The notes under the pieces are model-generated. The model was not told the origin of the DNA, did no database searches, and saw nothing but the letters and a program-made list of their open reading frames with translations. A stretch of 32,000 nucleotides of DNA from positions 120,001 through 152,000 of the forward strand of contig NC_022093.1 of assembly GCF_000446015.1 (NCBI RefSeq), in the 5' to 3' direction. Source of the DNA: Thermofilum adornatum (GTDB lineage: Archaea; Thermoproteota; Thermoprotei; Thermofilales; Thermofilaceae). The position numbers and the translations under genes are program-made. This document shows, one piece after another, positions 1-32,000 of the stretch; within the stretch, counting starts at the first letter, position 1; every line of letters starts with the position of its first letter.

Positions 1-1811
1 AGCTTTGTGTGGCTTATTTCTTGTCTTAGCTCGCGGACGTAGTCTGGCAGGAGTGGCAGGTAATTGTTGTAGCGGTGGTCGCCCAGGATTATTACTGCTT
101 GGTCTCTTGGGCTTCTGAGGGCTCTCCCTATTGCTTGTGAGGCTTTGCGGAGGGCGGGGTATATGTATGCGTAGAGTCTTCCTTTTCCTTCTCCGTATAG
201 CTCCTCGTAGTAGGAGATGTAGAGGTTGGTCTTTACTGTTGGTTTTTCGAAGGGTATTCCTGCGAGGAAGACGCATACAAGCTCTTTTCCGGGGAGGTCT
301 ATGCCTTCGGCGAATCTTCCACCCATTGGTGCTACTAGTAGCCCTTTTCCTTCGTCTGCAAGCTCCTTGAACTCTTGGAGTACTTCTCCGGCTTCTTGGC
401 CACTCATATCCCTTTTCTCGACGAAGACTTGGTAGCCCTTTTGTTGGCTTGTCTCCCTTAGACCTGCTTCTAGGAGCTTCAGCTGTATCCTGTAGCTGGC
501 AGTGAAGACGGCCGTGTTTCCCTTTACCCTCTCGAGGACCTTTCCGATAGCTTCTACATATTTTCTGGCCATTTCCTGTGAGAGCTCTTCGCCTCTTGTT
601 GTGAGGTCTTTTACAATGTATACGGATGCATTTGTCTCGTCGTATGGGCTGGGGACGCTTATGGGCTTGTAGTTTTTTACTCCTATTGTCTCGGCGAACG
701 CCTCTATGGGGCTGAGGGTGCCAGACATAAATATTACCCTTCTAAACTTCTTCCAGACGTTTGAGAGTATCTCAGAGGATCTCATGTCCCATATGTTGAG
801 GTGTATTTTGCCATCGATTTTTTCGGCTATCAGGGCTACTCCTCTTTCTCCCTCGTAGCTGGTTGCCTCTTCTAGGAAGTTTGCCAAGTGGTACAGGCTA
901 CTGTGCGGCCTTTTACCTTCTCTAAACCTCATGTCCCTTACCTCCTCGCCTAGAATCTTCATTTTCTCTATCATTTCCTCGCGTCCATCTATGAGTTTAA
1001 GCGGGCTGAATACTTGGGACTCTTCTTCGCCTAGGCTCGAGAACTCTTTTTCCACGTTTTCCTGTATCTTGTCTATGAATTCGGCCATGTCTCTGGCTTC
1101 TAGTTCTTCTGCCTCTCTTTTCGCCCTCTCAATTGTGCCCTCTGTCACTGTGTCTCCGCCGAGGTTTAGCTGTGTCAGGTTGTGCGCCTCGTCCACTACG
1201 AGTATGGACTGGCTAAGCGGGAAGGCTCCCTTTATCGTCCAGGAGAGGTTCTCGTCTACCACGTAGTTATAGCTGAGCGATACTACGTCTGCCACTTTAA
1301 GCAACTCTCTCTGTAGAAAGTATGGGCATACCTTTTTCTTTCGGGCCCATTCATAGACTTCACTGTAGGTTAGCACGCCCCTGCTCAGCAGGATGCTGTA
1401 GTCTACGCCTTCCTCTAGCCTATTGTAGTATGGGCACCTCTTCCTCTCGCGGCTACATATGTAGGAGACCTCGCTGTAGTCAAGTGTCTCGCCGAACTCC
1501 TTCGCTAGGAGGCACATGTCCTTTTTCCCGCGGAAGCTCATAGCTATGAATCTTGCATTTGACTTTTCGCGGAAGACCCTGAACTCCTCGATTGGCCTGT
1601 CCGTCTCATTTCCCGTTCTAACGGCCCACACTATTCTTCCTCCCCTGTCTAGGAAGGGCAAAAGCGAATAGATTACTACAGGTGTTTTGCCGAAGCCTGT
1701 TGGGGCCTCGAGGATAACGTTGGCTGTCTTGAGTGTTTCCTGTATCTCTGAGGCTACCTCTAGTTGGCGGGGCCTCGGCTTGTAGGGAAACTTGTATTTC
1801 GAGAGGCTCAA
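1..1811 (-). CDS. xpd: XPD/Rad3-type SF2 DNA helicase with 4Fe-4S domain (partial; C-terminus beyond left edge)
   Basis: Missing from the ORF track because its stop lies outside the window. My translation of the minus strand from TTG at 1811 stays open to base 1 (~603 codons). Motifs seen: EAPTGFGKT (Walker A); four Cys in FeS-domain positions (DMCLL, YICSRERKRCPYY, KKVCPYF); VVDEAHNL (DEAH box); QAIGRALRSPRDQAVIILGDHRY (motif VI). Confidence 0.88.
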   Translation of the reverse strand, partial: MSLSKYKFPYKPRPRQLEVASEIQETLKTANVILEAPTGFGKTPVVIYSLLPFLDRGGRIVWAVRTGNETDRPIEEFRVFREKSNARFIAMSFRGKKDMCLLAKEFGETLDYSEVSYICSRERKRCPYYNRLEEGVDYSILLSRGVLTYSEVYEWARKKKVCPYFLQRELLKVADVVSLSYNYVVDENLSWTIKGAFPLSQSILVVDEAHNLTQLNLGGDTVTEGTIERAKREAEELEARDMAEFIDKIQENVEKEFSSLGEEESQVFSPLKLIDGREEMIEKMKILGEEVRDMRFREGKRPHSSLYHLANFLEEATSYEGERGVALIAEKIDGKIHLNIWDMRSSEILSNVWKKFRRVIFMSGTLSPIEAFAETIGVKNYKPISVPSPYDETNASVYIVKDLTTRGEELSQEMARKYVEAIGKVLERVKGNTAVFTASYRIQLKLLEAGLRETSQQKGYQVFVEKRDMSGQEAGEVLQEFKELADEGKGLLVAPMGGRFAEGIDLPGKELVCVFLAGIPFEKPTVKTNLYISYYEELYGEGKGRLYAYIYPALRKASQAIGRALRSPRDQAVIILGDHRYNNYLPLLPDYVRELRQEISHTK

Positions 1812-1938
1812 ACTTATCCTTTGTTGGTTTTCGAGACTCTACTTAAAAAGATAGTGGGTTCCTGCATAGCATTTAAGGAACGCGTCACAAATGGATTTTT
1901 ATTGCATTTTGTCAATAGTGAAAAAGGAGGGTTCAGGG

Positions 1939-3006
1939 GTGCCGGCAAAGATTTGGAAGGTTGACCCATCTGATCCAGATCCAAGAGCCATCGAGGAAGC
2001 CGCCTCTATATTGAAGTCTGGTGGAGTAGTCGCGTTTCCAACGGAGACTGTTTACGGGTTAGGAGCGATATACAACTTGGTAGAAGCCGTAAAGAAAGTA
2101 TTCCAAGCAAAAAAGAGGCCCATGGACAACCCACTTATTCTGCACGTCTCAAGCTTCTCGCAGGTCTCCGAGCTGGCGGTGGACATACCCCTGGAGGTAC
2201 ACGAGCTGGCTAAAAGATTCTGGCCTGGTCCGTTAACCATTGTATTGCCCAAATCTGCTAGGGTCCCAAGAGAGGTGACTGGCGGCCTTGGGAAAGTCGC
2301 TATCAGGATGCCTGCCCACAATGTCGCCCTAAAACTTATTGAGGCCGCTGGTGCCCCAATTGCCGCTCCCAGCGCGAATCTCTCTGGTAGACCCTCCCCT
2401 ACAACTGCCCAGCACGTTATAGAGGACTTGGGGGACGCTATCGACGGGATTCTGGACGCAGGCGAGACGCTCTACGGGGTTGAAAGCACAGTCATTGACT
2501 TGACAAGTAGGCCCCCCGTCCTCCTAAGGCCCGGCTCTATGCCTGTAGAGGAGATAGAGAAGGTACTGGGTGTCAAAATTTTTATTCCTTCATTTGCGAG
2601 GGGACTAGGAGAGGCAGAGAAGGCAGTAGCTCCTGGAACAAAGTACCGACACTACTCCCCAAGGGCTACATTGATACTGGTAGAAAGCAGGGACACAATC
2701 AATATTGAGAAGGTCGTGGCGAAGATAAGGGAGCTGGCCACGTATCATCTAGGGTTAGGTAAAAAGGTTGGCATCCTGTGTACTGACGAGACGCGGGACA
2801 GGTATCTAGACCTTCCGGCTGAGGTTATTAGCCTAGGCTCCAGAAGAGACTTTTTCCAGATAGCAAAGAGGCTTTATCCCTCATTAAGGACGTTTGATTC
2901 AAAGAATGTAGATATAATTTTGGCTGAACCAGTCGAAGAGAGGGGTCTTGGGCTCACGATTATGAATAGGCTTAGGAAGGCATCGAGTCAAAGGATCCTT
3001 GTCTAG
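1939..3006 (+). CDS. sua5: L-threonylcarbamoyladenylate synthase Sua5/YrdC family (t6A biosynthesis)
   Basis: Track ORF is 1891..3006. I prefer the in-frame GTG at 1939, which is preceded by GGAGG (1926-1930) and gives MPAKIWKVDPSDP..., a typical archaeal Sua5 N-terminus. YrdC-domain motifs present: VAFPTETVYGLGA, KKRPMDNPLILHV, SANLSGRPSPT. A C-terminal Sua5 domain follows. Confidence 0.9.
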   Translation: MPAKIWKVDPSDPDPRAIEEAASILKSGGVVAFPTETVYGLGAIYNLVEAVKKVFQAKKRPMDNPLILHVSSFSQVSELAVDIPLEVHELAKRFWPGPLTIVLPKSARVPREVTGGLGKVAIRMPAHNVALKLIEAAGAPIAAPSANLSGRPSPTTAQHVIEDLGDAIDGILDAGETLYGVESTVIDLTSRPPVLLRPGSMPVEEIEKVLGVKIFIPSFARGLGEAEKAVAPGTKYRHYSPRATLILVESRDTINIEKVVAKIRELATYHLGLGKKVGILCTDETRDRYLDLPAEVISLGSRRDFFQIAKRLYPSLRTFDSKNVDIILAEPVEERGLGLTIMNRLRKASSQRILV

Positions 3007-3635
3007 GAGGACTTGCCAAGCGCCGACACGACGTCTTTGTCGGTTACCTCTGAGAAATCTCTGTAGAATTCTCCAACAGCAAACAAGAATGTTGGGACAT
3101 GAACGGAGACTACCTTGTCAGCATACTTTGACACAATGGGTAGTACATCTCTAGAAATCACGGGGACAGCCACGTAAACCTTTTCTGCGCCGGCTTTTTT
3201 GGCCGAGATGCATGCCGCGATGACTGTTGCACCAGTAGCGATTCCATCATCAACAATTATGGCTATCTGTGATCTGAGGTCTAGGGGTCCTCCCCTAAAC
3301 TTTTCGATGTAGCTCTCGATTATTCTTTTCTGGTACTCTACTTCTTTCTCGATGTATTCCTGGTCTATCCCTAGATGCATGACTATCTCCCTGTTTATGT
3401 AGACAGCCTCTAGCTCGGCTATAGCGCCGATCGCGAGCTCCGGGTTTCCGGGCGCCCTCAGCTTCCTGGACACTATCACGTCGAGGGGAGCGTTGATCCT
3501 CGCGGAGACCTCTTTAGCAACGATGACTCCTCCCCTAGGTATACCTAGAACCCTAAAGTTGCTGTCCGTTATGCCTTCTTCTAGGAGCTTCTCGGCGAGC
3601 TTCTTTCCTGCGTCGACCCTGTCTCGAAAAACCAT
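3003..3635 (-). CDS. predicted phosphoribosyltransferase (type I PRTase fold)
   Basis: 210-aa ORF with the PRPP-binding loop IAIIVDDGIATGATV and the N-terminal FRDRxDAG..LA pattern of the predicted-PRTase family. Its 3' end overlaps the convergent sua5 stop by 4 nt. Confidence 0.75.
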   Translation of the reverse strand: MVFRDRVDAGKKLAEKLLEEGITDSNFRVLGIPRGGVIVAKEVSARINAPLDVIVSRKLRAPGNPELAIGAIAELEAVYINREIVMHLGIDQEYIEKEVEYQKRIIESYIEKFRGGPLDLRSQIAIIVDDGIATGATVIAACISAKKAGAEKVYVAVPVISRDVLPIVSKYADKVVSVHVPTFLFAVGEFYRDFSEVTDKDVVSALGKSS

Positions 3636-3824: not shown

Positions 3825-4952
3825 CTAGCTAAAGGCCTTTCTCAGCCTTGCAAGCGATATTCTTCTATCCCTCTTTTTCTCCTTGGTCTTCGAGAAGACC
3901 TTGTAAGCAGAGTCCACGGCTTCAAATGTCACTGCTACAGGATCCCATCCAGAAGAAGATGTACTAAATGTATCCTTGTCAAGCTTTATAGAAACGTATG
4001 CGTCATACCTTTTTCTCTCTCCAGCCTTCTCACGGGACTTTATCACCACAGACATTTCGAGTAGGCGTCCCCGTTGCGCAATTTCCCGGGCAACCTCTAG
4101 AGCCTTCCTGAAAACAAGGTTTCTAGCTATAAAGTCTAGGTCTTCTACGCCCTCTATTCTAAGGGGAATGTTGGCTTCCTCAACTGCTGGTAAAAGTCTC
4201 CTCAGAAGCAAGTAGGGAGAGATAATACCATAGACAGTCCCGTTGGCGTTCAGCACTACCGAGCCCTCGGCTATGTCCATAGTGGTGGGTTGCCCATCAA
4301 TATTTACAGCTCTAAAGTTTGTGGCCATGATTTTGGATACTGGCTGTTCTAGGAAGTATGATATTTCTCCCTTTATTTCGCCGAGCCTTTCTCTGCGTAG
4401 GGGCGTATTATAGATAAAGTTGACTAGGTCGTAGATCCTTACCACTCCCACTGGCTTCCCATTCTCTGCGACAGGCGCAAACCTCAGCCCATTCTCTGCC
4501 AGCAACTTTCTCGCTTTCTCTATGGGGTCGTCTGGTTTAAGGGGTTCCAGCGGGAAAGCTATATACCTGGCTGCAACCCTAGAGACGAGCCCCATCGTTT
4601 CTAATAGTCTCCTAGCCGAAATTACTCCAACTATTTTCCCTTCCTCAGCGTAGGGGAGGCCCGGCTGGCCCGTTTTAACAAACATCCTGGCGATATCTGT
4701 GAGGGAATAGGAAGAGTCGACAATGGGAACCTTCTCGAGGACGCTCCTAATTTTTGTGTTTCCTTGGTACTTAGATTTGAGAATCGAGAAAATAGAAACT
4801 ATTCCAGCATATTTGCCTTCTGAATCTACAACTGGGACAACTGGAAGCTCAAATCTCCACATTTTCTCGGCAACAAGAGAAACAATATCATCCAGCTTTA
4901 AGGGATCGATTCTGACAACTGCCCCGCTTAACGGGGGTCTACTAGATGCCAT
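3825..4952 (-). CDS. CBS-domain (two Bateman modules) protein with C-terminal YfiA/HPF-like domain
   Basis: 375-aa ORF. The N-terminal ~260 aa contain four repeats of CBS-like pattern (…PVVDSEGKYAGIVS…, …LPYAEEGKIVGVISARRLL…, …APVAENGKPVGVVRIYDLV…, …NANGTVYGIISPYLLLR…). The C-terminal ~110 aa follow a beta-alpha-beta-beta-beta-alpha pattern that aligns by eye to E. coli YfiA. A TATA-like TTTTTATATC lies ~30 nt upstream of the ATG. Confidence 0.8.
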   Translation of the reverse strand: MASSRPPLSGAVVRIDPLKLDDIVSLVAEKMWRFELPVVPVVDSEGKYAGIVSIFSILKSKYQGNTKIRSVLEKVPIVDSSYSLTDIARMFVKTGQPGLPYAEEGKIVGVISARRLLETMGLVSRVAARYIAFPLEPLKPDDPIEKARKLLAENGLRFAPVAENGKPVGVVRIYDLVNFIYNTPLRRERLGEIKGEISYFLEQPVSKIMATNFRAVNIDGQPTTMDIAEGSVVLNANGTVYGIISPYLLLRRLLPAVEEANIPLRIEGVEDLDFIARNLVFRKALEVAREIAQRGRLLEMSVVIKSREKAGERKRYDAYVSIKLDKDTFSTSSSGWDPVAVTFEAVDSAYKVFSKTKEKKRDRRISLARLRKAFS

Positions 4953-5013
4953 AACATGTATAATAATCCTAGAAAGATATAAAAATGAATCGTTTAGAGG
5001 AGATCAAAGCATT

Positions 5014-6258
5014 TTAGGAGACTTCCTCTAATGTTTTACCCTTAGTCTCTATTCCAAGCACAGACACAGTCAGGCTCGATACGAGCTGCGCAACGGCAAA
5101 TGCCAGGAAAGACGTGAATGGCTCCTTGAACTGTGAAAGCATGAAGCCTACGAAGTATGGTCCAAGGATGCCTCCTATCCTGCCGACAGAGTTGGCCCAC
5201 CCGCTTCCCGTGCCTCTCAGCTTGGTGGGGTATAGTTCAGGGGTGTAGGCGTATGTTACTCCCCACGCCCCCAAGTTGAATGCTGAGAGTACGATTCCCC
5301 ATAATAGGACGGCCTGGTCACTGGTAGCCATCCATAGGCCGAAACTTGAGAGACCAGAAACCAGCATGTAGGTTGCGAGGGTACGCTTTCTTCCTACTTT
5401 TTCGACTAGGTAGGCGGCTGAGAAGTATCCGGGGACTTGTGCAAGCGTTATGATAATTGCATATTCGAGGCTCTTGACGATGCTTAACCCTCTCCTTGCA
5501 AGGAGGTCGGGTAGCCATGTAAAAATGCCCCAATATGAGAAGGCGAGCATGAACCAGTGTATCCAGAGCATGAGCGTCCTTGCAAAGTATTTACCTGTAA
5601 AGAGTTCCTTTAGAGAGGCTTTCTCTTGCTGGCTTGTACTTGGTAATTCTATAGAGAATCTTTGGGTTAGGCTTCTTGCTTCTTCTGTTTTTCCCTTTAG
5701 TAGAAGGAACCTCGCAGACTCTGGGACATAGAGGAGAACTACCAGGAGAACTGGCCATGTTATCGTCGAGGACAAGAACACGGCCCGCCAGCCACTGATC
5801 GGTAGAATTATTCTTGATAGAATTATTGCTAGGAGCCACCCTATGGCCCAAGAGCTTTCTAGTAGGGTTATGTTTCTTCCCCTGGTTTCTTTTCTCGAGT
5901 ACTCTGCGAGGAGCACGCTTGCAGTAACCATGTAGCCAGTGTTTCCAGTACCAGCTAAGAGCCTCAGTATCGAAAGTGTAATCCAGTCTCTCACAAATGA
6001 TGTCAGGGGGGTAAAGATCCCCATGGTCAATAATGACAAGACGATGGCTTTTTTCCTCCCAATTTTGTCGCTGAGAAAGCCAAAGACAAATGCGCCTATC
6101 AGCATTCCGACAAGCCACGAGCTCAAAATGAGCCCGGCCTGTTCGGGTGAAAGATTGAGCTCTGTCCTGATAGCTGTCAATGTGCCGGAGGCAAGTCCAG
6201 CGTTTAGGGCTCCTATAGCCCATCCAGACATCAGGATAACGAGTAGCTTTTTCTCCAC
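5014..6258 (-). CDS. MFS transporter (sugar-porter/metabolite:H+ symporter-like)
   Basis: 414 aa with a ~12-TM hydrophobicity pattern. Has the MFS loop motif LSDKIGRKK after TM2 and a PESARFL motif in the central loop. Confidence 0.85.
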   Translation of the reverse strand: MEKKLLVILMSGWAIGALNAGLASGTLTAIRTELNLSPEQAGLILSSWLVGMLIGAFVFGFLSDKIGRKKAIVLSLLTMGIFTPLTSFVRDWITLSILRLLAGTGNTGYMVTASVLLAEYSRKETRGRNITLLESSWAIGWLLAIILSRIILPISGWRAVFLSSTITWPVLLVVLLYVPESARFLLLKGKTEEARSLTQRFSIELPSTSQQEKASLKELFTGKYFARTLMLWIHWFMLAFSYWGIFTWLPDLLARRGLSIVKSLEYAIIITLAQVPGYFSAAYLVEKVGRKRTLATYMLVSGLSSFGLWMATSDQAVLLWGIVLSAFNLGAWGVTYAYTPELYPTKLRGTGSGWANSVGRIGGILGPYFVGFMLSQFKEPFTSFLAFAVAQLVSSLTVSVLGIETKGKTLEEVS

Positions 6259-17143: not shown

Positions 17144-17584
17144 TTATCTTAACAATTCTAGTTCGATATTTATATCAGGTTCAAATCGCGAGATATGTAC
17201 AAGGCCTTTCCACGTAAACACGAGGTGCTTGGTTGTCTTAGGAGGAAAAAGTTTCCCAGATAGCCCAGCTTTTAATACCTGTTCCTTCGGGATATTCTTG
17301 CCATCTCCAAAAGACTTTACTAAAATAAGAGGCGACTTGTAGTTGAACATGATACATGGTATATACCTGCAACCCAGACATTTTAATGCCTCAAATCTGT
17401 GGTGCCCATCTAGTATGACTCTAGTACCTTTATCTACAGCTATCGGCTTCTTTAAAACTCCATCCTTCACTATTGAAGCTAGCAATGTCATAAGTCTGTC
17501 TTGTTCGCACTCCTCGTGAGGACGGAGCTCACTGATGGCACACAGTTCAATGTTATTTTTGCTTTGTAACCAATAACCCCTCAT
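17144..17584 (-). CDS. ParB/sulfiredoxin-fold protein; candidate free L-serine kinase (SerK/SbnI-like)
   Basis: 146 aa with ISELRPHEE and VILDGHHRFEAL (ParB N-terminal/Srx motifs). No HTH or dimerisation domain is present. It sits 185 bp upstream of the O-phosphoserine sulfhydrylase on the same strand. Confidence 0.7.
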   Translation of the reverse strand: MRGYWLQSKNNIELCAISELRPHEECEQDRLMTLLASIVKDGVLKKPIAVDKGTRVILDGHHRFEALKCLGCRYIPCIMFNYKSPLILVKSFGDGKNIPKEQVLKAGLSGKLFPPKTTKHLVFTWKGLVHISRFEPDINIELELLR

Positions 17585-24016: not shown

Positions 24017-24688
24017 TTAGTCCTCGCTGGATACTGGCAGGTCTCTGTCTCTGGACTCTGCTATTTCTTTGGAGCGGAGAGTTCTCAGCAGGAGATCTAT
24101 CTGTTCGCCGAAGAATGCCCACAGCGAAAAGACGCCTATAAGGAGGCCGATGCCTATAGCTATTCCAATCGCTAGTGCCAGCTTTATTTCGCTACTGAGT
24201 GCTGCAAGGTCGATGAGGAGCAGGGTTATGAGGAGAAGACTTAGCATTGTGAAGAATCTTTCAGTTTTCCTTTCTAGCCTCATAGATTTGACCAATGCGT
24301 CGATAATTACAAAGGTAAGCATTGATAATACCACTACGCTACCGACCCTGTATATGTAAGCTATTAGGTCCCGATATGCCTGCGTGTATTCTGGGACAAA
24401 TATTCGAACCACAATTGCTGTGCTAGTGGCTATTACGCCTGCGTCTGCCAAGAAGATTATAAGGGAGTTTACCGGTATTCTTGTTCCTTCGGGGACAGCT
24501 CTCTTTACATAGTCTTCCAGCCTGCTTGTACGGACAAGCCAGTTAATTGCCTTGTTGAGAAGCTTTACAAAGAGGAGCGTTACAAAAATTACAAGCGTGG
24601 CGAGACCTGCCTTGGGAAAGAGTGACAAGATGTCTTCAAGGAGCTGACGGAGAAGCATAGTGATCTCTGCGTCCGACATGTCAACCAC
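24017..24688 (-). CDS. hypothetical polytopic membrane protein (~5 TM, charged C-terminal tail)
   Basis: 223 aa, GTG start at 24688 (alternative ATG at 24679). The start abuts or overlaps the upstream stop TGA (24681-24683), indicating translational coupling. I recognise no family motif. Confidence 0.7.
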   Translation of the reverse strand: MVDMSDAEITMLLRQLLEDILSLFPKAGLATLVIFVTLLFVKLLNKAINWLVRTSRLEDYVKRAVPEGTRIPVNSLIIFLADAGVIATSTAIVVRIFVPEYTQAYRDLIAYIYRVGSVVVLSMLTFVIIDALVKSMRLERKTERFFTMLSLLLITLLLIDLAALSSEIKLALAIGIAIGIGLLIGVFSLWAFFGEQIDLLLRTLRSKEIAESRDRDLPVSSED

Positions 24689-26012
24689 CGATTATTAGGA
24701 ATGCTAGCTTATAAATTATATATAAGAGCAAAGCCAGTGTCATCAAGGTTACTGCTTCAAAGAATGTTTTGAGGAATTCTTTAGAGGCTTGAACCGTGAA
24801 TGTGAAACCTGTGAGGCTAATAGAGTAGATTAGTCTGCTGAACTCGTACGCCTTTCTTCCTGGAATTATAGCGGTTTCAGGTATAGCAAGTAAGACTATT
24901 ATGACAGCTAGGAACTTGATGATAGCTGACAAAATGAGCCCTGTAAATGGATCCTTGACAAATATGTATGCAACCATCGAGGCTATGAGCAATCCTGTAT
25001 AGTTGCCGGCAACAAGAAATGCGGATGCCTTTATTCTTCCCATGCGTGCATTAACCTCAGCGAAAATCTGCATTGCGAGTAAGTTTGCAGCCATAAAGGT
25101 TAGAGATGTAAAGAACGATATCCCTACATGGGCATACGGGTAGCTGATAAATGGTATTAGTCCCGTCAGCAAAGTATTTGCAACTAGGCCAACCATATAT
25201 GACTTGTAGCCCCTAAACAGGAATGAGCCAAGAGTGCCTCCAATGTTCCCCGTTACACTCAGGGCGAGAGCTATATAGATAGGGGCGCCTAAGCTCTTTA
25301 GAAAAGGAGTCCACGACAATCCCACTAAGTTGCTACCGGCCAGCATGAATGTGAGAACCAGAAAAGCCGAGTGTCCTCTTACAATTACTTCGACCGGCGT
25401 CTCCTGCTGTTTCTCTACTATTTGAGAGGGAAACTTTGGGACAAGTATGAAGGCGAGAGAGCTTCCCAGGCCAATAACAAATGCCGCAAAGTAGGATATA
25501 ATGTAGCTTTGAGGGGGATTATAGACGTAGGAAACGAAGGTCATAAAGAGGGATCCAAGCAAGGAAGCAACTGCTCCAGCTGCTGATCTCCAGACTGAGA
25601 CATTTATCACGTCTTGTATAGATGAGAAATATGAGTAGATTAGTGCTCCAATGAAAATGCTTACCACTGCTGAGATAAGGTTTCCAAGCATGTAGGTAAA
25701 GGATATCAGCTCTATGTTGCCCAAGAGGAAAGGCAAGAGGAACCATACAACTCTTTCAGTCACATGTGTAGTGAAGGCCAGGAATTTGAATTTCCTTGTA
25801 AGGCTGTCGGAATACCTGTACAATATCAATGATAGAATAGACCCGCTTAGGCCTGTGGGCAAGAGTATGAGTGCCATGTTTCCTAGGCTGTACCCGCTAT
25901 ACGAGATCATTGGGATAAAGAGACCCCTAGTTATTGAGACGTAGAATCCTCCTAGGAATGCTTCTACAACTAGGAGTACCTTAGCAATATTTTCTTCTGG
26001 CGAAGACGACAC
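24681..26012 (-). CDS. hypothetical ~12-TM membrane protein (weakly MFS-like)
   Basis: 443 aa, GTG start. A TATA-like element (26029-26045) lies ~20-30 nt upstream. Hydrophobic throughout. The weak loop motif YRYSDSLTRKFK resembles the MFS loop 2-3 motif. Confidence 0.72.
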   Translation of the reverse strand: MSSSPEENIAKVLLVVEAFLGGFYVSITRGLFIPMISYSGYSLGNMALILLPTGLSGSILSLILYRYSDSLTRKFKFLAFTTHVTERVVWFLLPFLLGNIELISFTYMLGNLISAVVSIFIGALIYSYFSSIQDVINVSVWRSAAGAVASLLGSLFMTFVSYVYNPPQSYIISYFAAFVIGLGSSLAFILVPKFPSQIVEKQQETPVEVIVRGHSAFLVLTFMLAGSNLVGLSWTPFLKSLGAPIYIALALSVTGNIGGTLGSFLFRGYKSYMVGLVANTLLTGLIPFISYPYAHVGISFFTSLTFMAANLLAMQIFAEVNARMGRIKASAFLVAGNYTGLLIASMVAYIFVKDPFTGLILSAIIKFLAVIIVLLAIPETAIIPGRKAYEFSRLIYSISLTGFTFTVQASKEFLKTFFEAVTLMTLALLLYIIYKLAFLIIGG

Positions 26013-29969: not shown

Positions 29970-30956
29970 TTAGAGTTCCAGAACTATTCCCGGCACCCTT
30001 GGGAAAAGCTGCAGTTCGCCTATATGTTCAATTCCGGTAACCCATAGGAGCAACCTCTCGACACCAATACCTGCGCCAGCGCTTGGGAGAAGCCTTCCCT
30101 CCTTTGCTAGGCTCAAAAGTACCTTGTAGTTTTCAAGCGGCACACCGTCCCTCTTCATTTTTGAAACTATCTTGTCATATTTGTATTCTCGTCTAGCTCC
30201 AGACAGAATTTCTCCCACTCTTGGAACATATAGGTCATAGTTGTCCCAGACGCCTGTCGCCTCGTCTTCATAGTCGTAGAATTCTCTTGGAATGTTAACT
30301 ATCCAGAGGGGTTCTTTTAGTTCTTCTCGAAGGATGTCTGGCCACTTTTCACCATACTTCTCCTCAGCCTCACGGCTATCCATAACCTTGAAGGGGATGC
30401 TGAAACTCAAAAGGTCATATGTTCCTAGTTCTTTTAATTCACTTGAGAACCTAGCCCTTAGGAATGCAATATACTCTCTGAGTAGTTCCTCAACGAATTT
30501 CCTTACGTCGGCGGAGCTGGCTCCACGTATTTCGAAGTCTAGCTGTGTGAACTCGTAGCCATGTATGCCTGTGTTGAGTCTCTCCCTTTTTTCAATTCTG
30601 ATGTTGGGGGAAAAGATAAAGATCCTGGGAGCTAGAAGAGAAACTAGTACCTGTTTGTGTACAATCATGCTATGGGTGGTTCTCACAGTTTCTCCATATA
30701 TCTCGATCTCTATCCTTTTTTCGATACTGAAGTCGGGATCGGGCCAGAGGGGGTCTGTAGCTTTAGAGAGAATTACGGGCATTATCCACTCAAAACCCTT
30801 CTCGACAAAATATTCTGATAGGTAACGTAGGGTATGTGTCGTAATCCGTGTTGTTAGCCTTTTTCTCTCTATTTCCTCTGGGGAAAGCTCGTTGAGCTGC
30901 TTTATTTTAGACTCGTGGAGTTGCTTGAGAATTAATTTGGTTTGTTCCTTGGTCAT
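29970..30956 (-). CDS. class II aminoacyl-tRNA-synthetase catalytic-core paralogue lacking an anticodon-binding domain (archaeal AsnA-type asparagine synthetase candidate)
   Basis: 328 aa. Motif 1-like GFEWIMPVIL; motif 2-like FSPNIRIEKRE…GYEFTQLDFE; motif 3 SAGAGIGVERLLLWVTG. No OB-fold N-domain is present. Confidence 0.72.
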   Translation of the reverse strand: MTKEQTKLILKQLHESKIKQLNELSPEEIERKRLTTRITTHTLRYLSEYFVEKGFEWIMPVILSKATDPLWPDPDFSIEKRIEIEIYGETVRTTHSMIVHKQVLVSLLAPRIFIFSPNIRIEKRERLNTGIHGYEFTQLDFEIRGASSADVRKFVEELLREYIAFLRARFSSELKELGTYDLLSFSIPFKVMDSREAEEKYGEKWPDILREELKEPLWIVNIPREFYDYEDEATGVWDNYDLYVPRVGEILSGARREYKYDKIVSKMKRDGVPLENYKVLLSLAKEGRLLPSAGAGIGVERLLLWVTGIEHIGELQLFPRVPGIVLEL

Positions 30957-31074: not shown

Positions 31075-31488
31075 CTAGTGCTCGTGTTCGTGAACCTCTC
31101 CTGGTTCAGCAAGCTCAAACATTATATCCACGACTCTTGCAAATTCCTTTACTTCGAGAACACTCAGACCCTCGTCGCTCTTTATGACAATATATCCCTT
31201 GTCTTCGTATTCTTTACATTCGCTTTCTGTTTTACAGGTTGCTATCTCTTCGATTATGGCTACTATGGGCTCTATGCCTCCTGAGAGTAGCTTGTACATT
31301 TCGCATGGATCCTCTATAGCTGTTACAACTTCCTCTGCATGGTGTTCCTCTACTAGTTTCAGTATTTCCTCTGCTTTTTCTAGGGGACCAACACCTATAA
31401 CTTGAACATTTTCTCCGAGGGAGTCCTTCAGCTTGTCATATATGTGTGGAGTTGCTGGGATATCTATGGCCCATATTACTTTTTTCAT
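31075..31488 (-). CDS. hypothetical small acidic alpha/beta protein with HEHEH C-terminus
   Basis: 137 aa. The ATG lies 2 nt after the upstream stop (TAAAAATG), indicating an operon. I recognise no family. Confidence 0.62.
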   Translation of the reverse strand: MKKVIWAIDIPATPHIYDKLKDSLGENVQVIGVGPLEKAEEILKLVEEHHAEEVVTAIEDPCEMYKLLSGGIEPIVAIIEEIATCKTESECKEYEDKGYIVIKSDEGLSVLEVKEFARVVDIMFELAEPGEVHEHEH

Positions 31489-31490
31489 TT

Positions 31491-32000
31491 TTAGCTCACC
31501 AGCGACAAAACGTCTAGGACTTTCTGGTAATCTGTTATGAGTCTGTTTAGCTTGTCTATGAGGTCGTTTTCGTTTGATGCATATTCAGATAGTATAACAA
31601 AGCCTTCTTCGTTTATGTCTAGACGGCTCTTTATTAGGTGTGCCCTTATCCTAAGTTGCAAAGCCTCGTCTATGGCGGAGAAGTCTCTCTTGAATATGGG
31701 GTCGCTCTCAATTATGTAGCCAAATTTTTCAACAAATATTTCGAAGCCAATCCTTGTGTCCCTCTTCGTCGAGGCCCCAACTATGCTTACAACGTCCCTC
31801 CAGTTGCGTGGTGCAACTAGGTAGCCAGACTCACGTATCAATTTAACGAGCTTCTGCATGTCGGGTGGATATTCTTCGTCTCGGGGCACATCTACCTTAA
31901 CCTCGGATCCATTTTCTATTTGTAAAACGTAGTGTTTTGGACCAAGGAACCATCCCAGGGGTATAACAGGTCCATACGGCTGGTTTGGGCCGGCAAATAG
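31491..32000 (-). CDS. hypothetical protein (partial; N-terminus beyond right edge)
   Basis: The track reports 31491..31889 from a GTG. My translation shows the frame stays open for 37 more codons to base 32000 (LFAGPNQPYGPVIPLGWFLGPKHYVLQIENGSEVKVD-), so the gene probably starts outside the window. I recognise no family. Confidence 0.62.
   Translation of the reverse strand, partial: LFAGPNQPYGPVIPLGWFLGPKHYVLQIENGSEVKVDVPRDEEYPPDMQKLVKLIRESGYLVAPRNWRDVVSIVGASTKRDTRIGFEIFVEKFGYIIESDPIFKRDFSAIDEALQLRIRAHLIKSRLDINEEGFVILSEYASNENDLIDKLNRLITDYQKVLDVLSLVS

Follow-up and report, generated by a model that had tools for sequence, protein, structure and literature searches.

What kind of protein joins four CBS domains to a domain resembling bacterial ribosome hibernation factors, and does such a fusion belong to a known archaeal system? 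This question is raised by an open reading frame (ORF) at positions 3825..4952, on the reverse strand, of a 32,000-nucleotide stretch of the Thermofilum adornatum genome (NC_022093.1, positions 120,001 to 152,000; hereafter the window). An earlier, sequence-only reading of this DNA had proposed that the ORF encodes a sensor of adenine nucleotides linked to a domain that silences ribosomes, with a role in archaeal hibernation, and had left undecided whether the architecture was already characterised. It is: the layout was published in 2025–2026 as HibA/AHA, and the combination of nucleotide sensing with ribosome silencing in hibernation has been demonstrated experimentally for these homologues (PMC13324472; PMC12934967). 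Our analysis indicates that the product of the window gene is very probably the HibA (or AHA) orthologue of Thermofilum, and the protein is an ordinary member of this family of archaeal ribosome hibernation factors.

The ORF list, the homologues and a full-length match to HibA define a complete hibA/AHA-type gene of 375 codons plus a stop codon. Homologues occur across the Thermofilaceae (Thermofilum, Infirmifilum and uncultured relatives; 364–391 amino acids, 47–98% identity to the window protein), and the ORF is therefore a genuine gene. A database entry is identical to the window protein, and T. adornatum TCARB_1210 is ~99% identical to it. When the full-length protein was compared with the sequences of the PDB using phmmer, the best match was Pyrococcus abyssi HibA (9sr9_H, together with its sibling entries) with an E value of 3.2e-14. 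This alignment pairs window residues 37–366 with HibA residues 35–381, and the similarity is thus significant across both modules. A second line of evidence comes from Thermofilum pendens, whose protein A1S180 (UniRef100_A1S180, P0003) is 68% identical to the window protein and is among the seed queries that Souza et al. used for AHA (PMC12934967). The gene order surrounding the ORF is the same as in T. pendens Hrk5, with genes for a ferredoxin (Fer4) and an aldehyde:ferredoxin oxidoreductase (AFOR) on one side and for a phosphoribosyltransferase (PRTase) and Sua5 on the other. Judged by sequence and gene order, the window protein is the syntenic orthologue of A1S180 and hence of an AHA seed sequence. 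Two of the homologues are labelled by JGI as 'CBS domain-containing protein/ribosome-associated translation inhibitor RaiA'. One CBS tetrad followed by an HPF-like domain is the diagnostic layout of HibA/AHA, and the window protein has it.

HibA (PAB0961 in P. abyssi, TK1186 in Thermococcus; PDB 9SR9-9SRF and 9T7H) was found on hibernating P. abyssi 70S ribosomes by Madru et al. (Nat Commun 2026; PMC13324472), with experiments in P. abyssi and Thermococcus barophilus. Its C-terminal domain occupies the mRNA/tRNA channel of the 30S subunit, and its CBS module takes up three positions on the 50S subunit, swinging about a hinge between the modules; in one of these positions a long loop, residues 190–207, enters the peptidyl-transferase centre (PTC). 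The CBS module binds AMP with a dissociation constant of 12 µM, in preference to ADP or ATP (PMC13324472). The same family was described independently as AHA in Haloferax volcanii (Souza et al., bioRxiv 2026; PMC12934967). In AHA, two AMP molecules lie between CBS3 and CBS4, in positions corresponding to sites 3 and 4 of AMPK gamma, 'loop 3' is inserted in the PTC, and the 30S A/P sites are occupied by the HPF domain, whose terminal helix exceeds that of Escherichia coli HPF in length (PMC12934967). The evidence for the family comprises cryo-electron microscopy (cryo-EM), knockouts and genetics, in vitro translation inhibition and AMP binding (PMC13324472; PMC12934967).

The N-terminal module of the window protein spans residues ~8–255 (4188..4931, reverse strand) and consists of CBS1 (4773-4925), CBS2 (4593-4754), CBS3 (4407-4571) and CBS4 (4188-4355), all on the reverse strand. 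That four CBS domains, arranged as two Bateman modules, precede the C-terminal domain had been read from the letters, and profile, model and fold search agree on this. Pfam assigns the CBS family with an E value of 1.6e-23, with three stretches above threshold, and no other Pfam family exceeds its threshold in the full protein. An AlphaFold2 model of the full-length protein (28-sequence alignment; mean predicted local distance difference test score (pLDDT) 87.3, predicted template-modelling score 0.79) contains four CBS-type units ahead of residue 255, with pLDDT values mostly above 90. Foldseek aligns 265–285 columns of this model to CBS tetrads. The nearest folds of the module are the ribosome-bound proteins SriA/B/D and Dri, along with MJ1225 and AMPK gamma (E values 1e-20 to 1e-12), a pattern that agrees with the one reported for AHA. 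By analogy with the characterised members, the tetrad would be the module that binds the large subunit and adenine nucleotides. In particular, the CBS3 motif GVVRIYD is kept and its Asp175 is invariant in the Thermofilaceae family alignment, and nucleotide binding in the CBS3/CBS4 cleft is therefore likely. A Pfam match to IF3_N (translation initiation factor 3 N-terminal domain) also falls on CBS3 (residues 144–183, window 4404-4523, reverse strand); it scores 20.8 bits against a cut-off of 26.9, and an IF3_N assignment is also precomputed for P0001, a homologue of 98% identity. The match is curious given the ribosome-binding family, though most likely spurious, and we did not retain it.

After the CBS3 helix the chain forms an extended loop, TPLRRERLGEIKGEISY, at residues ~183–199 (4356..4406, reverse strand). 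The loop aligns with P. abyssi HibA residues ~189–207, and a GE..GE motif is common to both. In the family alignment Gly191, Glu192 and Gly195 do not vary, and Thr183, Pro184 and Arg187 vary little or not at all; pLDDT drops below 50 at residues 189–194, as expected of a flexible protruding loop. On alignment, conservation and pLDDT, this loop is assigned as the equivalent of the HibA 'PTC loop' and the AHA 'loop 3'. A flexible linker between the two modules follows the tetrad (residues 256–261; 4170..4187, reverse strand), with pLDDT values below 50 at residues 257–260.

The remainder of the protein, residues 262–375 (3828..4169, reverse strand), is an HPF/RaiA-like domain as judged by AlphaFold2, Foldseek and sequence profiles. 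The peptide picked out for it in the sequence-only reading corresponds to residues 262–364 of the ORF and holds; the span given there, 3825-4170, ends one base out of frame, the in-frame limits being 3828-4169. Because full-length Foldseek searches were dominated by CBS tetrads, the last 120 residues were modelled separately (pLDDT 85.8), and the topology was the same as in the full-length model. It consists of β1 (264–267), α1 (274–294), β2 (297–310), β3 (313–324), β4 (328–335) and α2 (338–374). In a search of the PDB with the isolated domain, ranks 1–28 were all members of the HPF/RaiA/YfiA/pY family, including the N-domains of long HPF proteins and mycobacterial RafH/MPY. The best match was 6eri_BV (E 4e-6). 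Vibrio cholerae and E. coli HPF, Thermus thermophilus and E. coli YfiA and plastid pY were matched with E values of 4e-6 to 2.6e-4, template-modelling (TM) scores on the target of 0.72–0.78 and root mean square deviations (rmsd) of 2.5–3.1 Å; for E. coli HPF (2rql) the values were a TM score of 0.75 and an rmsd of 2.5 Å, and YfiA bound to the 70S ribosome (4v8i/4y4o) was also among the matches. At the level of the predicted fold, the resemblance to HPF/YfiA is thus clearly far beyond chance, and the structural comparison that the sequence-only reading had suggested bears out its YfiA/HPF-like domain. The basic tail noted there is likewise present: the domain carries 26 Lys and Arg against 17 Asp and Glu residues and ends in a long Lys/Arg-rich helix, whose basic C-terminal part is KVFSKTKEKKRDRRISLARLRKAFS (residues 351–375; 3828..3902, reverse strand), with Lys357, Arg361 and Arg369 conserved in the family alignment. 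By analogy with HibA and AHA, the domain would bind the 30S subunit.

In sequence, the tie to bacterial HPF is weak but consistent, and it takes either the full-length protein or a family profile to bring out the link to HibA and HPF. A phmmer search of PDB sequences with the C-terminal domain alone returned only spurious matches, to designed repeat proteins, and the sole Pfam match of the C-terminal 114 residues, to PP2 (E 0.11), was dismissed as chance level. A profile built from 18 homologous domains and run against the PDB found 9l96_a, a 406-residue 'CBS domain-containing protein', with an E value of 6.9e-14, and P. abyssi HibA with 7.3e-10. These were followed by E. coli HPF (0.013), the sigma-54-modulation/HPF chain 4v8h_AX (0.052) and YfiA/RaiA chains (0.35–0.5). 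The HMMER alignments of the profile to E. coli HPF are in the register that had been drawn by eye against E. coli YfiA, and the ranges matched in YfiA/RaiA fit the same register. In addition, half of the 18 homologous domains (9/18) match the Pfam family PF02482 (Ribosomal_S30AE) weakly, with a best E value of 5e-4. A profile search of 1.84 billion representative proteins gave 258 clusters at E <= 1e-3, a mix of proteins of ~360–420 residues that carry the domain C-terminally and stand-alone proteins of ~100–140 residues. One of the stand-alone relatives, P0190, matches the profile with an E value of 9.5e-10 and scores 29.1 bits with PF02482, above the gathering threshold of 23.7 bits; it therefore provides a transitive sequence link to the bacterial HPF family. 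We conclude from these profiles that the C-terminal domain is homologous to S30AE, yet is not a Pfam-defined member of it.

The chain 9l96_a (also 9l98, 9l9c and 9l9v) precedes P. abyssi HibA as the best PDB match of the C-terminal profile. PDB 9l96 is not among the ARC entries and no mention of these entries was found in the literature searched. The chain probably represents a further orthologue of HibA/AHA whose structure was solved on a ribosome.

Several results weigh against the assignment to HibA/AHA. The HPF-family profile check envisaged in the sequence-only reading was negative in its direct form, since PF02482 matched neither the window protein nor its C-terminal domain even at E <= 10, and the check turned out positive by the family profile, by the transitive match and by the fold search. 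An NCBIfam scan of the C-terminal 114 residues returned nothing. An hhalign comparison with a bacterial HPF alignment, which is shallow and holds, among those listed, only enterobacterial sequences of at least 76% identity, gave an E value of 7.5e-4 and a probability of 25%, and may be taken as supportive, not decisive. HibA itself is not among the full-length Foldseek matches, the PDB set ending at 2026-04-08, apparently before release of the 9SR* entries. Identity to P. abyssi HibA is low, ~20–25% over the aligned region, and the counterpart of the PTC loop is shorter by four residues than that of P. abyssi. The canonical ribose-binding Asp is present in CBS3 only and is missing from CBS1, CBS2 and CBS4, whereas P. 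abyssi HibA has it in other CBS motifs too; nucleotide stoichiometry or specificity may therefore differ between the two proteins. Finally, we infer ribosome binding, AMP binding and a physiological role in Thermofilum from the homologues. Thermofilum is also a crenarchaeon (Thermofilaceae, Thermoproteota), whereas the hosts in which HibA was studied are euryarchaea. The low identity, the shorter loop, the single Asp and the Thermoproteota host are compatible with membership of the family.

If the protein is HibA/AHA by descent, it could still have another main job in Thermofilum, as an AMP-regulated partner of DNA replication and recombination or as another regulator that binds RNA, its binding to ribosomes being then a minor function or lost altogether. 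Pull-downs do tie Thermococcales HibA to DNA replication and recombination proteins, and the role of nucleotide binding was left open in that work (PMC13324472). Thermoproteota also have Dri, a factor of unrelated architecture that is typical there and beside which HibA might be redundant, and the shortened loop and the three CBS motifs devoid of the canonical Asp would fit a change of function. The best-conserved parts of the protein are, however, the ribosome-contacting elements, namely the GE..GE loop, the basic C-terminal helix, and Trp336 with Lys357 of the HPF-like domain; the two-module architecture is kept at 47–98% identity across the Thermofilaceae family, and a conserved neighbouring partner gene was not found beyond local synteny. 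We consider such a change of main function quite improbable. A less far-reaching departure is that the Thermofilum protein is a mechanistic variant of HibA, binding one nucleotide with another specificity or engaging the 50S subunit in an altered way, and that it may share its work with Dri-type factors. This is conceivable because the loop is four residues shorter and CBS3 alone carries the canonical Asp; no result speaks positively for it, and we regard it as unlikely, if somewhat less so than a change of main function.

Two further readings would remove the protein from the family. The C-terminal domain might be a generic fold of the double-stranded RNA-binding domain (dsRBD) type, in which case the protein would be a CBS-regulated RNA-binding protein unrelated to hibernation. 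Such domains share part of the fold: Foldseek places Loquacious, Staufen, RNase III and DRB7.2 at rank 29 and below, with E values of 3e-3 to 4e-2, and the missing Pfam S30AE match would suit this reading. Yet all 28 better matches belong to the HPF/RaiA/YfiA/pY family and cover the whole domain, including β1, which dsRBDs lack, and profiles tie the domain both to HibA (7e-10) and to a protein above the S30AE threshold, which leaves a dsRBD origin extremely improbable. The CBS part, for its own part, might point to an HhpR / CM-3-type regulator of transcription, or else to a CBS-only hibernation factor of the Dri/Sri/ARC type. There is a weak NCBIfam match to HhpR, and the CBS part matches Dri and SriA-D in the PDB by sequence and by fold. 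The HhpR match amounts to 27.7 bits, far under the cut-off of 520 bits, and the CBS-only factors are built differently, Dri from two tetrads devoid of an HPF domain and Sri/ARC from lone tetrads, whereas the window protein pairs a tetrad with an HPF-like domain. We give both versions hardly any credence, and the assignment to HibA/AHA stands as the favoured one.

Compared with the known systems, the window protein belongs with HibA and AHA, which are the same family under two names and both consist of a 4xCBS module and an HPF domain. The haloarchaeal proteins carry acidic insertions (compare P0033) that the window protein lacks, and AHA has two AMP molecules bound, where the Thermofilum protein may bind one, two or none. 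The C-terminal domain has the same predicted fold as bacterial HPF, RaiA (YfiA) and plastid pY (PF02482), with sequence similarity that is weak and in register, and the characterised archaeal homologues use the same 30S binding site as bacterial HPF. In the window domain the β2–β3 hairpin and the last helix are longer than in the bacterial proteins, and the domain sits behind a CBS tetrad in a 375-residue protein. Bacterial forms are either stand-alone or long HPF with a C-terminal dimerisation domain, and the window protein is neither. Dri of Pyrobaculum calidifontis (PDB 9E6Q/9E7F) and SriA-D/ARC of Methanosarcina and Methanolobus are likewise CBS-tetrad proteins of hibernating archaeal ribosomes. 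Dri is made of two fused tetrads (~655 amino acids) and has no HPF-like domain, in contrast to the single tetrad and HPF-like domain of the window protein, which the Dri chain 9e6q_3 matches via CBS repeats only. It too inserts a loop into the PTC, in an orientation on the 50S subunit opposite to that of AHA (PMC12934967). Sri/ARC proteins are stand-alone tetrads of ~260–340 residues, and the Sri chains align to window residues ~1–265 only; relative to the tetrad-only proteins CM-1/2/4/5, SriA-D and ARC-A/P, the window protein adds the HPF-like C-terminal domain. Eukaryotic AMPK gamma has the four-CBS fold in common (Foldseek E ~1e-13), whereas in the window protein nothing points to kinase partners and the tetrad is covalently joined to a predicted ribosome-binding domain.

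How hibernation might proceed in Thermofilum is suggested, by homology, by the structures that cryo-EM has given for HibA of P. abyssi and AHA of H. volcanii. Upon translation shutdown, in stationary phase or under energy, oxidative or cold stress, the HPF/RaiA-like domain would occupy the decoding centre of the 30S subunit, within the mRNA/tRNA channel, with the extended basic helix directed to the mRNA path. The disc-shaped CBS tetrad would lie on the 50S subunit, covering the A/P (or P/E, E) tRNA sites, and would insert the conserved post-CBS3 loop into the PTC. A single polypeptide could in this way staple the subunits together, exclude mRNA and tRNAs and keep the 70S ribosome intact, and such bridging would protect ribosomes and rRNA from degradation until the cells grow again. 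In the CBS3/CBS4 cleft, AMP is probably bound more readily than ADP and ATP, and engagement or release may follow the energy charge.

In its genomic setting the gene is preceded by a TATA-box-like element, TTTTTATAT (4977..4985, reverse strand), read from the sequence and centred ~29 nucleotides upstream of the ATG, which may be the gene's own promoter and would give a leaderless or near-leaderless mRNA. T-rich tracts lie downstream of the hibA stop codon, and a second TATA-like element lies ahead of the downstream PRTase gene; taken with the upstream element, these make it probable that the hibA transcript is monocistronic and of the leaderless type. The neighbouring genes are housekeeping genes (Sua5, the phosphoribosyltransferase, an MFS transporter, and ferredoxin with AFOR). 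Directly downstream of hibA lie the gene for a type-I phosphoribosyltransferase (3003-3635, reverse strand) and, convergent to it, that for Sua5, a threonylcarbamoyl-AMP synthase (1891-3006, forward strand). The PRTase-Sua5 adjacency is kept in T. pendens, in a second Thermofilum contig and in Infirmifilum (L002 7283-9033; L001 6110-7853), and it was not seen next to the hibA homologue in another Thermofilaceae metagenome-assembled genome or next to a distant homologue. The adjacency is therefore taken as local synteny to which we attach no functional weight, and the PRTase was rejected as a conserved functional partner of hibA.

On the other side, a sugar-type MFS transporter gene (5014-6258, reverse strand) lies between the ferredoxin/AFOR genes and hibA. 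T. pendens has no such transporter at this junction, and a metagenomic Thermofilum contig (L003 3108-5949) has a transporter together with an IS605 OrfB/TnpB (Cas12f-like) gene there, so that the junction appears to be a variable spot. No other CBS gene was found in the window, and a scan of the window for tRNA and Rfam elements found none.

Elsewhere in the window, a pair of ORFs that adjoin or overlap (223 and 443 amino acids; 24017-26012, reverse strand) has no Pfam match at E <= 1e-5. Beside the pair are genes for a nucleotidyl transferase and a glycosyltransferase of family 2, and its products may be membrane proteins or connected with glycosylation. Four small ORFs (137, 132, 146 and 111 amino acids), located at 31075-31889 (reverse strand), 17144-17584 (reverse strand) and 931-1266 (forward strand), also have no Pfam match. 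A 328-residue protein encoded at 29970-30956 (reverse strand) matches only the catalytic core of class II (D/K/N) aminoacyl-tRNA synthetases, with no match to an anticodon-binding domain, and may be AsnA-like or a paralogous synthetase-like protein. The G+C content falls from ~49% in the first 10 kb to ~41–45% past 16 kb, with a minimum of 0.408 at 16–18 kb.

The practical value of the result is in annotation. The window protein, its identical or near-identical copies in the T. adornatum group and their Thermofilaceae relatives are currently named 'CBS domain-containing protein', 'hypothetical protein' or 'signal-transduction protein' in the databases, and can be renamed as ribosome hibernation factor HibA/AHA. 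The window adds one more orthologue to a family whose published survey already includes the close relative T. pendens A1S180, and the case illustrates that a true, non-obvious domain fusion can be recognised from the raw letters alone. For the family as a whole, HibA/AHA shows that the ribosome-silencing domain of HPF is common to Bacteria and Archaea, being coupled in the latter to a nucleotide sensor resembling AMPK gamma. Should the Thermofilum protein after all prove to be a variant that shares its work with Dri-type factors, two archaeal strategies of hibernation would be found side by side in nature in the Thermofilaceae.

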